Origin: Candidatus Poribacteria bacterium
GTDB lineage: Bacteria; Poribacteria; WGA-4E; WGA-3G
DNA length: 64,000 nt
Direction of reading: 5' to 3'
Assembly (NCBI GenBank): GCA_963663765.2
Contig: CAXXUA010000015.1
Coordinates: 32,001-96,000 of the forward strand
In this document: piece by piece, positions 12,600 through 38,067 of the stretch
How positions within the stretch are numbered: the stretch's first letter is position 1
Layout of the letters: every line of letters starts with the position of its first letter
Notes under the pieces: generated by a model
What the model saw: the letters and a program-made list of their open reading frames with translations, nothing else
What the model was told of the DNA's origin: nothing
Database searches by the model: none
Made by a program: the position numbers and the translations under genes

Positions 12600-12792
12600 C
12601 AGGACTTACGCAGTATTCTTGATTTAATCAAGAATTATGATGAAAATGATGCAATTATCAACATTTTTATGGGTTTCCGGCGCCAAATCAAGTAATCAAC
12701 GGTATGAATGCTATAAAGCGTTCCCCGGGTATGATTGCCTTTTGGCATTGCGCGCCTACAAAGCGCGCCTACCGTTGTGTGCGTAAGTCTTG
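12600..12792. mobile_element. family A MITE (CAGGACTTACGCA TIRs) with nested hairpin mini-elements
   Basis: TIRs caggacttacgca / tgcgtaagtcttg; flanks taactt / taacta. Confidence 0.8.
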
Positions 12793-14768: not shown

Positions 14769-14819
14769 TTTTGATTTCAGATAAGGATCTAATTGGATAC
14801 AAGAGTAATGTCTCAGCAA

Positions 14820-17222: not shown

Positions 17223-17380
17223 CAGGACTTACGCACCCAACGGTAGGCGGGGAATGCCTAAATGGCATTCATACCGTTGATTTGGTGCTTTGTAAGCGCG
17301 CTGGAAACCGAAAAAATGTTGAAAATTACACCATTTTCGCCATAATTCTTCATCAAATCATGAAAACTGCGTAAGTCCTG
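17223..17380. mobile_element. family A MITE between wza and wzc
   Basis: Perfect 13-bp TIRs, AATAGT direct repeats, 36-nt mini-element at 17249-17284. Confidence 0.85.
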
Positions 17381-19873: not shown

Positions 19874-20028
19874 CAGGACTTACGCACCCAACGGTAGGCG
19901 TGCTTTGTAGGCGGGGAATGCCAAAAGGCATTCATACCGTTGATTTGGCGCTGGAAACAGAAAATGCTGAAAATTACACCATTTTCGTCATAATTCTTCA
20001 TCAAATCATGAAAACTTCGTAAGTCCTG
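19874..20028. mobile_element. family A MITE
   Basis: TIRs, TCAAT direct repeats, mini-element at second internal site 19913-19947. Confidence 0.85.
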
Positions 20029-21179: not shown

Positions 21180-21291
21180 AGATTTATCTCCTAATTTGAT
21201 GATAGTTTCATTCGTAGTTTGCGTATTAATCAACCTTCGGGTGGTTTTATGATTATACTATGGTTAGGTTTATGTGTCAATCATTTTATCC

Positions 21292-21979
21292 GGGTGTGTA
21301 AAGTGTTTGCACAGAGGTACTAACTTTTGTTCTCTTTAGTCCCGTAGGGACGCAATGTTTATAGAATGACGTTATCACATCCTCTCTCTTTAGTTCCGTA
21401 GGAACGATAGAGAAGGATAAACATATCGTCCCTACCAAATCAACGCCAAATGCGCCAAATCAACGGCATGAATGCCATTAAGGCATTCCCCGTATGGCAT
21501 TTGTCAGGACTAAAAAGACGTGGGGATATGTATTTCTATAAACATATCGTCCCTACGGGACTGAAGAATATGGTTAATATTAACAATATTTCTTTATATT
21601 GACACTTAATGAAGTTGACAATCAAAATCGGTAGTTGTATTCGTAGGGGTTGGGTTCCCCTACCCGTTTGGTTTTTGAGTTTGCGTAGATCATGTGTGGA
21701 AACAACGCCCCTACGAATACACAACTTGAACGTCAAAACTCATTAGGTCTCTCTGTGTCCGCAATCTCTCATTTAATCAGTTGCGGCGGGGCACAGAGAC
21801 CCGGGGAATGCCTAAAGAAGCATGCGCGTATGGCATGCTCCATGATTCATACCCGGGGAATGCCAAAAGGCATTCATACCCGGGGAATGCCAAGAGGCAT
21901 TCATACCGTTGATTTCTTGATTTCTTGATTTCGCCCTACAATGGAGAGTGGGATGTTTGTGCAAAAACTTTACACACCC
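21292..21979. mobile_element. non-autonomous composite MITE with ISKra4-like TIRs (copy 1)
   Basis: GGGTGTGTAAAG ... CTTTACACACCC ends match the IS at 56335; interior highly similar to 36084-36698; no TSD seen. Confidence 0.85.
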
Positions 21980-24332: not shown

Positions 24333-24733
24333 CAGGGTTATTCAGTTTTAAGAATCTATCGTTATTCCAGTTAACTTTGGGTTAAAATTAGTGAATATAT
24401 AGGGATTTTTGATGTATTCTTTATTATTGTCAGAACCAGGATTTTCAAATCAAGAAATCAACGGTATGATTGCTATATAGCATTCCCCGGGTATGAATGC
24501 CGTATGGCATTCCCCGGGATTAGAAGACTATCAAGATTTCTTTCATCAAATCCTATTCCAAAAGAGGCATAAACGCATATAAAAAACCCTTGACGAGGTA
24601 AATCCTGAAAATCTACTAATCTTGAAAATCCTGGTTCAGACAAAGCATGAGTTAACTCCACAAAAATTAACTAATTTAAGGATTAACGACTGTGGTAGAA
24701 TTTACAAAATAAATTGAAATCTAAATAACACTA
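24333..24733. mobile_element. family B MITE (CAGGGTTATTCAGTTTT TIR)
   Basis: 9-bp TSD GGAATTTGT on both sides; interior similar to 53454-53966. Confidence 0.85.
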
Positions 24734-31369: not shown

Positions 31370-32115
31370 CAGGAACAGGGTTATTCAGTTTTAGGTATTT
31401 TTGATGAGTGTTTACTATAACGTTAACATTATGTATTGCCATCTTGTACATGTCTTTAGTGGTTCTTTCGGCAATTAATTTTAGCATAAAATAAAATTTC
31501 AATGCTGAAGAACTCAGTAGTCATCTGTTTAAGTAGTAGATCGTCAATGGAAACATATCAGGACTTACGCACCCAACGGTAGGCGTGCTTTGTAAGCGCG
31601 CCGGAAACCTAAAAAATGCTGAAAATTATATCGTTTTCGTCTTAATTCTTGATTGGATCATGAAAACTGCGTAAGTCCTGCATATAATAAATACTTAGCA
31701 AGAAAACCATTTAGTCCCGTAGGGACGATATGTTTATAGAAAAATGTTATCTACCCCTCTTGAGTTCCGTAGGAACGGCATAGAAGAATAAACATATCGT
31801 CCCTACGGGACTAAAGAACTGGGAAGGGTACTCGTTATCTATAAACATATCGTCCCTACAGGACTAAAGACCGATGTTCATGTTTCAATAATCTAAAATT
31901 GATGTGTAAGGTGCAGTTAGGAGACCTCATTTGGGTATTAACTATCAGTCCATCTCAATTACAGAAAACTTTTAAAACTAAATAACCCTGAGTCAGGACT
32001 TACGCAGTTTTCTTGATTTAATCAAGAATTATGATGAAAATGATGCATTTATCAGCGTTTTTATGGGTTTACAGCGCGCTTACAAAGCACGCCTACAGTT
32101 TTTACGTAAGTCCTG
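31370..32115. mobile_element. nested cluster: family A MITE interrupted by family B element (31376-31990) that itself holds a family A MITE (31559-31680) and a GTCCCGTAGGGAC REP cluster (31711-31868)
   Basis: TSDs ATAGT (outer A), AGTCAGGA[A/C] (B) and CATAT (inner A). Confidence 0.8.
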
Positions 32116-36083: not shown

Positions 36084-36698
36084 GGGTGCGTAAAGTTTTT
36101 GCACAGAGGTACTAACTTTTGTTCTCTTTAGTCCCGTAGGGACGCAATGTTTATAGAAAGACGTTATCACATCCCCTCTCTTTAGTTCCGTAGGAACGGC
36201 ATAGAAGGATAAACATATCGTCCCTACCAAATCAACGCCAAATGCGCGTATGGCATTTGTCGGGACTAAAAAGACGTGGGGATATGTATTTCTATAAACA
36301 TATCGTCCCTACGGGACTGAAGAATATGGTTAATATTAACAATATTTCTTTATATTGACACCTAATGAAGTTTGACCATCAAAATCGGTAGTTGTATTCG
36401 TAGGGGTTGGGTTCCCCAACCCGTTTGTTTCTTGAGTTTGCGTAGATCATTTGGGGAAACCACGCCGCGACGAATACACAACTTGAACGTCAAAACTCAT
36501 TAGGACTCTGTGTCCACAATCTCTCATTTAATCAGTTGCGGCGGGGCGCAGAGACTCGGGGAATGCCTAAAGAAGCATGCGCGTATGGCATGCTCCATGA
36601 TTCATACCCGGGGAATGCCAAAAGGCATTCATACCTTTGATTTCTTGATTTCGCCCTACAATGGAGAGTGGGATGTTGTGCAAAAACTTTACACACCC
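36084..36698. mobile_element. non-autonomous composite MITE with ISKra4-like TIRs (copy 2)
   Basis: GGGTGCGTAAAGTTTTTGCAC ... GTGCAAAAACTTTACACACCC; 9-bp TSD ATCAGTAGT. Confidence 0.9.
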
Positions 36699-37792: not shown

Positions 37793-38067
37793 CAGGACTT
37801 TCGCAGTTATCTTGATTTAATCAAGATATGTGATGAAAATGATGTAATTATCAGCATTTTTATGGGTTTTCAGAACGCTTTCAAAGCACCAAATCAAGAA
37901 ATCAACGGTATGAATGCCTTTTGACATTCCCCGGGTATGAATGCCTTTTGACATTCCCCGGGTATGAATGCCTTTTGACATTCCCCGGGTATGAATGCCT
38001 TTTGACATTCCCCGGGTATGAATGCCTTTTAGGCATTCACCGCCTACCGTTTCTGCGAAAAATCTTG
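37793..38067. mobile_element. family A MITE with five tandem 27-nt hairpin units
   Basis: Degenerate TIRs; gggtatgaatgccttttgacattcccc tandem units at ~37908-38041. Confidence 0.8.

Follow-up and report, generated by a model that had tools for sequence, protein, structure and literature searches.

Within the window analysed here, a stretch of 64,000 nucleotides (nt) from a Candidatus Poribacteria genome (GenBank assembly GCA_963663765.2, contig CAXXUA010000015.1, positions 32,001 to 96,000 of the forward strand), very small hairpin units, which we call E, lie inside other repeats. On many separate occasions such a unit has arrived in a host repeat and/or left it precisely, independent of the amplification of the repeats that host them, and host duplication fails to explain their distribution. 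The explanation that we favour for the whole, at a probability of about 0.6, is that E is a module moved in trans, with many exact gains and/or losses, which spreads within its hosts by homology-assisted copying and makes rarer jumps.

The E unit, GGGGAATGCC-loop-GGCATTCATACC-GTTGATTT(G), measures 35–36 nt, is non-coding and is built from GGG, a stem of 7 bp (GAATGCC/GGCATTC), a loop of 4–5 nt, the spacer ATACC, the tail GTTGATTT and a terminal G. The tail, GTTGATTT(G/C), is single-stranded in this layout and conserved, and E folded as single-stranded DNA reaches −7.0 kcal/mol (z = −3.5). The initial annotation had listed this hairpin at a series of loci and described it as a very small non-autonomous element, and both statements hold: E encodes nothing, its hosts exist in filled and empty form, and its 20-mer GGCATTCATACCGTTGATTT has 14 matches in the window at up to three mismatches, against 0.02 expected, at the loci then named (positions 12693, 17264, 19483, 19726, 19927, 21457, 21896, 24455, 36624, 37899, 44380, 48687, 53701 and 60120); none of 100 shuffles reaches 14. 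The exact hairpin GGGGAATGCC-N3-6-GGCATTC occurs nine times in the window against none expected. Genome-wide (6.35 Mb in 15 contigs, GC content about 41%) there are some 460–620 copies, depending on the count, with 582 E hairpins, 456 full units and 160 distinct 8+9-nt contexts. By crude calls of open reading frames (ORFs), 26 of the 582 hairpins fall within ORFs, so that E qualifies as a high-copy extragenic hairpin. On the same crude calls its orientation relative to flanking ORFs is near even (95:86 and 87:58), which leads us to reject a directional, terminator-like element.

Four units carry the E-type tail, namely E itself (475 copies) and the sister units B (131), B2 (15) and B3 (12). 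The stems of the sisters, CAAATGC/GCATTTG in B, CAGAAGC/GCTTCTG in B2 and CGAATGC/GCATTCG in B3, are each paired with their own complement, and compensatory changes occur at two stem pairs of E in 22 and 37 of 629 copies. It follows that the structure and the tail are conserved and the stem sequence is not, and the four units form a small superfamily with a shared architecture and tail. A search of Rfam with E returned no family, the two matches at E-values of 0.1–0.2 lying far under the gathering scores. Hairpins and octamers combine into arrays, most often one hairpin with one octamer (282), followed by one hairpin with two octamers (89), two with two (69) and two hairpins with one octamer (5); direct E–E tandems number 35 in the genome.

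Gain and/or loss of E independent of its hosts

E was found only within other repeats, as the initial annotation had maintained. The hosts are a 122-nt miniature inverted-repeat transposable element (MITE), repetitive extragenic palindromic (REP) hairpins of the GTAG type, the sister unit B, a 689-nt element with terminal inverted repeats (TIRs) and E itself, and at least eight host types occur in this genome. Inserts at one fixed host position, inherited together with the host, are not what we observe, given this range of hosts and the 78 distinct contexts seen among 106 arrays in other Poribacteria.

The most informative host is the 122-nt MITE, called family A in the initial annotation and MITE-A here. 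It has the TIRs CAGGACTTACGCA...TGCGTAAGTCCTG, an exact 5-bp target-site duplication (TSD) in 147 of 241 parsed copies, an interior GTAG-tagged hairpin (GGTAGGCGCGCTTTGTAAGCGCGC) and well-resolved subfamilies, and in 117 of 117 cases its E inserts share the same orientation. We built a host tree from the 241 copies after removing all inserts; it rests on 123 columns and is unrooted, and it is short, though its column controls behave well. When E at site 1 (81 filled copies) is mapped on this tree, 64 changes are required, and shuffled labels take 67.7 ± 3.3 (z = −1.1). The control consisted of 23 polymorphic columns, each mapped on a tree from whose construction it had been excluded; 22 of them required 3–27 changes compared with 30–76 after shuffling (z = −10 to −27). 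The tree therefore resolves the MITE-A subfamilies well, and E at site 1 ignores them. MITE-A haplotypes run across both E sites, with r2 of 0.4–0.5 between column 14 and columns 53, 65 and 103, while E at site 1 never exceeds |phi| = 0.21 against any MITE-A column. Among the 65 copies filled at site 1 only, six are the same as an empty copy throughout and a further eight are one base off. One of these six lies in the window at 17223–17380 and agrees at 122/122 host positions with an empty copy on contig C5 (contigs of the genome other than by accession are denoted by C and a number).

The 689-nt element gives a similar picture on a smaller scale. Among six paralogues the number of hairpin units at the F site is 0, 1, 1, 2, 3 and about 11, and at the other of the two internal sites they hold nothing, B, B with E (three copies) or B with a double E; two of the six have clear 8–9-bp TSDs of their own. 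One host position, furthermore, takes several E subtypes, and each subtype is found in several hosts.

Host sites and junctions

The junctions of E read C^G or C^C without target duplication, and the first of these had been correctly recognised in the initial annotation; one host differs, with a 35-nt insert between two C's and no terminal G. Since E begins with G and is followed by G, the junction is ambiguous by 1 nt. Removal of exactly GGGG...GATTTG restores a 10+10-mer that is present elsewhere in the genome for 184 of the 582 copies. Site 1 of the REP_A hairpin, G[TC]AGGC^G[TC]GCTTTGTA, is empty in 801 copies and holds one E in 72, and its other fillings comprise about 25 with E and an extra octamer, 12 with the 60-nt insert class in which E contains an inner hairpin, and about 18 with two hairpins and two octamers. 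The loop of B, CATAC^GCGC, is empty 60 times and filled 39 times, and the host of B, TAGTCCC^GTAGGGACG, is empty in 475 cases, contains B in 44 and B with E in 31. The host F, ACAGAGACC-CC-GCCCTACAAT, is empty in 19 copies, and it is this host that is filled by 35 nt between the C's (ACAGAGACC C^C GCCCTAC). The REP_D loop, TCCC, is empty in 531 copies.

Arrays in other Poribacteria (the 106 arrays occupy 91 loci) lie in many cases in the loops or centres of other palindromes. Base −1 is C in 93 of the 106, and only this C is common to the flanks, the last four bases 5′ of E varying between AGGC, ACCC, ATAC, TCCC and others.

In the window, the exactly filled MITE-A site 1 had been correctly placed in the initial annotation: an E with the TAAAT loop occupies 17249–17284 (+) at GGTAGGC^GTGC, within the MITE-A copy at 17223–17380 (+; 122 nt plus E, with the family TIRs and an AATAGT duplication at its flanks). 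The insertion at 19913–19946 (+), with an AAAA loop, is at site 2 of MITE-A (GCTTTGTAGGC^G). The empty family A sites that had been reported exist as well, at positions some 20–80 nt away from those first given (31559 and 44881); the site GTAGGC|GTGCTTTGTAAGCGC lies at 31579–31599 (+), and the motif GTAGGC|GYGCTTTGTAAGC is found at 31579, 32076, 32263 and, on the minus strand, 44962. In another MITE-A copy, five hairpin units and two octamers form an array, whose core 20-mer lies at 37899–37918 (−). A second MITE type holds E at AATCCC^GAAAATCC, and in the window two hairpin units and two octamers are found in this type at 24455–24515 (−; AATCCC^GAAAATCCTGGTTCAGAC). In another species (G001), E occupies a different host at one locus, tandemly repeated CGCGTAATC, and its junction there is once more ..AATCC^GCG...

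Nesting is also seen in the 689-nt non-coding element at 21291–21979 (strand not assigned), which is delimited by GGGTGTGTAAAG...CTTTACACACCC. The family to which it belongs, of about 690 nt, has the TIR GGGTGTGTAAAGTTTTTGCACA, 8–9-bp TSDs and at least six copies at 80–95% identity, packed with smaller nested repeats; besides the copy just named they lie at 36084–36698 in the window and at C4:982888, C5:1377370, C7:104514 and C6:77820. An E copy of 36 nt with one mismatch to the consensus, GGGGAATGCC-TTAAT-GGCATTCATGCC-GTTGATTTG, sits at 21456–21491 (−) in the loop of a B unit at CATAC^GCGC. This B, 34 nt long (GACAAATGCCATAC|GCGCATTTGGCGTTGATTTG), is split by E into halves at 21436–21455 and 21492–21505 (minus strand, 21436–21505 overall) and in turn interrupts the host hairpin AGTCC(T)^GTAGGGACG. 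The initial annotation had pointed to the same variant without insert at 36228–36261 (−), and that B without E indeed lies in a paralogous copy of the 689-nt element. A further array in the element, at 21803–21931 (+), combines three hairpin units with three octamers. The loop of unit 1 (21803–21853, +) holds an inner, reverse-oriented mini-hairpin, AAGCATGCGCGTATGGCATGCT; units 2 (21855–21880) and 3 (21882–21907), both on the plus strand, each follow a linking C; and 21908–21931 (+) is made up of the tail GTTGATTT and two CTTGATTT octamers, after which host sequence resumes at CGCCCTACAATGG.

The loops of E are themselves targets. A 1.7-kb insertion sequence (IS; TIR CCTACACTCCGCAGTT) is bracketed by TTAAT within the loop of an E, and a small MITE with the TIR GAAGATTAATTTATTAAT lies inside several E loops; the places concerned are 258145–259890 on the minus strand of contig C15 and also C2:89667, C4:1092169 and C5:995043. 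Perfect head-to-head palindromes, GGTAGGC-GGGGAATGCC-ATTTA-GGCATTCCCC-GCCTACC, occur at C6:317058, C6:204524, C5:661080 and C5:1162766; in these, half of an E together with its host flank is reflected around the loop, as would result from hairpin-primed template switching.

Mode of spread and candidate enzymes

Subtypes of E defined by the loop are strongly host-specific. A1 carries mostly TAAAT (92), A2 carries AAAA only (37) and the loop of B mostly TTAAT (44), and 15 of 20 copies with an AATA loop lie in the host Gc. The subtypes each extend over several hosts, TAAAT being found in A1, B (12) and F (12) and AAAA in A2, D (11) and A1 (8). The base at −3 of MITE-A site 2 co-varies with E, which occupies 26 of 27 copies reading TAGGC|GCGC and 8 of 187 reading TAAGC|GCGC. 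This A/G column is the sole control column that behaves near-randomly on the MITE-A tree (30 changes compared with 32.1 shuffled), and it shows the same lack of linkage to the tree as E does. Host-specific subtypes and a flank base that co-varies with E disfavour free cut-and-paste from one pool, and we favour the interpretation that the G at −3 was copied in together with E, by short-patch conversion or homing from a filled paralogue.

Our explanation would accordingly have two components. Within one host family, E would spread mostly through homology-assisted copying, in which a filled copy serves as donor for an empty one (by homing or by gene conversion over short patches), while new hosts would be reached by rarer TSD-less insertions into hairpin-forming DNA, probably through a structure- and sequence-specific enzyme acting on single-strand DNA. 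Because E encodes nothing, the mover must act in trans. Each insertion restores C^G at its 5′ junction, and E contains another such step internally (ATACC^G), which explains the tandem E–E arrays and, roughly, the nested ones.

Several observations sit uneasily with this explanation. The flank base at site 2 could instead mark a strict requirement for GTAG, as the change from A to G makes site 2 identical to the site 1 10-mer GTAGGC^GCGC, and such a requirement would favour a GTAG-recognising enzyme, for example a REP-associated tyrosine transposase (RAYT), over gene conversion. That reading is in difficulty in turn, since it requires about 27 independent A to G mutations and near-saturating insertion at site 2, yet site 1 with the same motif is only 14–39% filled. 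The linking base between successive hairpin units or octamers in nested arrays is C, in the window at 21854, 21881, 21916 and 21924 and in arrays genome-wide, where simple nested insertion of 36 nt predicts G. The terminal base of E depends on the host, being G in most and absent or C in the hosts F and Gc, and in REP_D the filled form reads C-E-CC, so that the filled form departs from the empty one in more than the insert itself and the insertion is not clean. As the MITE-A tree is unrooted, gain and loss of E are indistinguishable on it. No contig from four of the seven public short-read runs that contain the stretch bridges an E site, so no present-day polymorphism was seen in them; their contigs end at the repeat clusters (12645, 17251, 19444, 21325, 24362), and the joints listed there are cross-joins between repeats. 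Finally, the exact 20-mer is kept in two genera, and E could have a function for the cell, such as binding a protein, and not be purely selfish.

A more specific version of templated copying, which we regard as fairly unlikely, is that E, B, B2 and B3 are homing-type ultra-small elements, for which a host nuclease would cut the empty C^G and the filled paralogue would template the repair. The nuclease would be specific for hairpins or single-stranded DNA, a candidate being a RAYT acting on GTAG-tagged hosts or some other protein, and repair would copy the 36-nt module with a few flanking bases. If this were true, E would be a non-coding parasite of mobile repeats that spreads by templated repair and not by transposition, and the mechanism could also cover the small dispersed repeats (SDRs) of cyanobacteria.

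The initial annotation had attributed E to HUH chemistry. On such a model, a Y1 enzyme, either a RAYT or the TnpA of IS200/IS605, would move single-stranded E in trans and every copy would arise by cut-and-paste or copy-out. A hairpin followed by a 3′ tail is the layout used by HUH enzymes (IS608, RAYT, relaxases), and E resembles such substrates in this layout, in its exact TSD-less junctions and in its strand specificity and fixed orientation. Many of its targets are in the loops or stems of other hairpins and would be single-stranded if extruded, and there is a weak orientation bias against local GC skew in this genome (odds ratio 0.57, p = 0.01). RAYTs recognise the GTAG tag of REPs; filling of site 2 goes with GTAGGC, and GTAG is also the tag of the REPs that flank RAYT genes here. 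The genome does encode Y1 (PF01797) proteins, comprising four IS605-type tnpA, one intact RAYT, one frameshifted RAYT and one fragment. The four IS605-type elements (tnpA plus tnpB; C5:688634, C3:287718, C5:550867, C5:353059) are near-identical and all follow the pentanucleotide TTAAC, one being truncated by another IS; they begin with TTAACACTATTCCGTCAAATCCCC.. and their ends are unrelated to E. The intact RAYT-like gene (C4:621598-622074, HUH motif PDHIH) has its own GTAG-type REP arrays (GTAGGAGGGAACTCCGATTCCCGA) on both sides, and the frameshifted one, at a contig end (C10:24997-25277), lies behind an array of REP_A units. A Y1 gene with E on both sides, in the manner of a RAYT gene between its REPs, was found at 0 of the 6 matches in this genome, the weak exception being the frameshifted RAYT fragment, with an E in the first unit of the REP_A array that precedes it. 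In four congeners, E lay within about 1.5 kb of 0 of 10 Y1 loci, and the RAYTs of two of them are flanked by yet another GTAG-REP; the 91 E-bearing loci (684 kb) encode no RAYT or TnpA. Nor do Y1 counts bear a relation to E counts: five high-E genomes have 0–4 PF01797 matches, five low-E genomes have 2–21, and G064, a genome in one contig with 186 copies of E, has none. The reverse strand of E reads ..CAACG-GTAT-GAATGCC.., with GTAT in place of the GTAG or GTGG of a REP tag, while true REPs here carry GTAG. The varying four bases of the 5′ flank also argue against this proposal, and host-specific subtypes would not be expected if all copies came from one pool of excised circles. The attribution to HUH or RAYT enzymes is not supported, and no enzyme is tied to E; as an explanation of the whole we consider it rather doubtful, though it has more in its favour than the two considered next.

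Should there be no dedicated enzyme at all, ectopic gene conversion among host repeats might suffice, with new hosts acquired by rare illegitimate recombination or template switching at hairpins. Host-specific subtypes, the co-varying flank base and the palindromic rearrangements centred on the E loop would fit such a scheme, as would the fact that our searches for a mobiliser found none. The exact ends, the C at −1 in 93 of 106 arrays and the 78 contexts are nonetheless too site-specific for random illegitimate events, the retention of E and its tail over two genera while the stems co-vary points to recognition by a trans-acting factor, and unbiased conversion would leave expansions from 2 to 468 copies unexplained, so that we judge this scheme improbable. 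Far less credible still is the notion that E never moved alone, and that a single insertion per host family was copied by host amplification. Some pairs of host and E do look clonal, as with the AATA-loop copies in Gc, and site 2 clusters on the tree if the A/G column is kept (25 changes compared with 40.6). For MITE-A site 1, however, this is contradicted by a filling state that is random on a tree resolving ordinary columns very well, and filled and empty MITE copies may match at all host positions, one site holds several subtypes, the 689-nt paralogues are unlike in E content, and the counts of E and host are decoupled over species.

Other candidate sources were sought in the genome of the window. 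It contains no IS110-type transposase (PF02371, Transposase_20), a family that the control search found in 6 of 14 genomes; Y2 transposase (PF04986) gave no match, and the control likewise gave none in 14 genomes, so that this search is uninformative. A search for a long autonomous element with E ends returned only other MITEs and the 1.7-kb IS inserted in E loops.

Distribution and relation to known elements

A scan with the exact 20-mer over 185,579 species genomes matched at least 91 stretches, and among the 80 matches listed, the titles of 79 name Candidatus or uncultured Poribacteria and that of the other an ‘uncultured bacterium’. We also surveyed copy number in 81 genomes of the order, allowing up to one mismatch. 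The motif is present in 23/23 genomes of the window's genus (2–468 copies, the genome of the window being the highest) and in 8/8 of a sister genus (1–80 copies); it was found in 0/2 genomes of a third genus and in 1/47 of the other three families of the order, as a single copy. By sequence matching, the E superfamily thus appears to be found in one Poribacteria family among the genomes searched. Counts of E and REP_A are decoupled, with 120 and 2 in G001, 82 and 0 in G004, and 468 and 1069 in the genome of the window. The empty REP_A hairpin is very abundant in the genus g16, another genus of the family, where G092 and G093 have 164 and 464 matches at up to two mismatches.

The closest species, G016, was compared by synteny over window positions 14818–45844 (contig C256 of G016, loci L120 and L121). 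Gene order is kept and long syntenic blocks are 85–90% identical, two of them 71–81%. At 6 of 8 orthologous places the G016 spacers are 28–89 nt long and free of repeats, where the genome of the window has 300–3900 nt of nested repeats; the remaining two spacers, of 354 and 811 nt, are without E and without the same repeats. This contrast shows turnover of whole clusters and not of E alone, and it would reflect either a massive recent repeat invasion here or a purge in the relative.

By analogy, we rate the SDRs of cyanobacteria as the closest known kind, of which E would be a member in another phylum. SDR1 to SDR8 are reportedly very small mobile repeated elements of heterocyst-forming cyanobacteria (Nostoc and relatives), with units said to be 21–27 nt long, nested in themselves and in mini-transposons, beside short tandem repeats (heptamers) and with empty sites available. 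As far as these accounts go, E resembles them as an ultra-small non-coding hairpin unit at exact TSD-less positions, self-nested and placed in mini-transposons, adjoining short tandem repeats (octamers for E, heptamers for SDRs) and with no transposase assigned. It differs in its Poribacteria host and in its length of 35–36 nt compared with the reported 21–27, and the likeness concerns described behaviour, not sequence. PMC4390886 places SDR5 exactly at the boundary of nucleotides 3 and 4 of HIP1, and PMC3116915 names SDRs among unexplained short repeats. Our literature search on small dispersed repeats found no later mechanistic work, the accessible part of the HUH survey PMC6006769 containing a general mention only, and a search on Poribacteria with REP or mobile repeats found nothing relevant. 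What is new relative to the SDR case is the test on the host-MITE tree and the flank base that changes with the insert.

Other known classes share single features with E. Like REPs, E is a high-copy extragenic hairpin that forms mosaics with other short motifs. REP sequences, bacterial interspersed mosaic elements (BIMEs) and REP doublets forming hairpins (REPINs) are treated together with RAYT (TnpA_REP) genes in PMC3116915, PMC6006769 and PMC3733652, and some RAYT subclasses are there described as flanked by REPs with a 5′ GT[AG]G (PMC6006769). In contrast, E is without a GTAG tag, flanks no RAYT gene and does not track Y1 content; with neither the tag nor a linkage to RAYT, it falls outside the REPs and REPINs and is instead an insert inside REPs. 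Nor is it a MITE, as it has neither TIR nor TSD, both of which its host MITE-A possesses.

Elements of the IS200/IS605 family (IS608, ISDra2) have no TIRs or TSD, carry a subterminal hairpin, are cleaved some 10–14 nt 3′ of that hairpin and insert strand-specifically. E shares the absence of TIR and TSD, the hairpin with a putative cleavage site at a similar distance, and the strand-specific insertion with them and with their miniature derivatives, the palindrome-associated transposable elements (PATEs). Unlike them, it has one hairpin and not a left and a right end, and its 5′ flanks appear to share no 4–5-nt target beyond the C at −1; its ends are unrelated to those of the IS605 copies of this genome, and its replication-strand bias is only weak. 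Judged on sequence, E does not appear to be a recognisable IS200/IS605 derivative. IS1397/ISKpn1 and the IS110/IS1111 family are full insertion sequences that exceed 1 kb, encode a transposase and target REP hairpins. E likewise occupies defined positions in palindromic repeats; it differs in being tiny and without transposase, in a genome with no Transposase_20 match and no long element with E-like ends. PMC3116915 cites Tobes and Pareja 2006 on insertion sequences targeting REPs. A last comparison concerns flanking markers. Group I introns and inteins home with co-conversion of such markers, and E would resemble them in spreading from filled to empty copies at one exact position with a nearby flank base carried along; as it encodes no endonuclease and is not spliced, the parallel is an analogy only.

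Most descriptions to date of mobile DNA of less than about 50 nt, without inverted repeats, target duplication or an assigned enzyme, concern the SDRs of cyanobacteria. The E case comes from an uncultivated phylum of sponge symbionts unrelated to cyanobacteria and offers a clean comparative system for finding the mobiliser, with hundreds of copies, clear empty sites, a host-MITE genealogy as a control and a 200-fold range in copy number among congeners. Much of the intergenic DNA of this genome is recent nested repeat, which matters for the assembly and annotation of metagenome-assembled genomes of Poribacteria.

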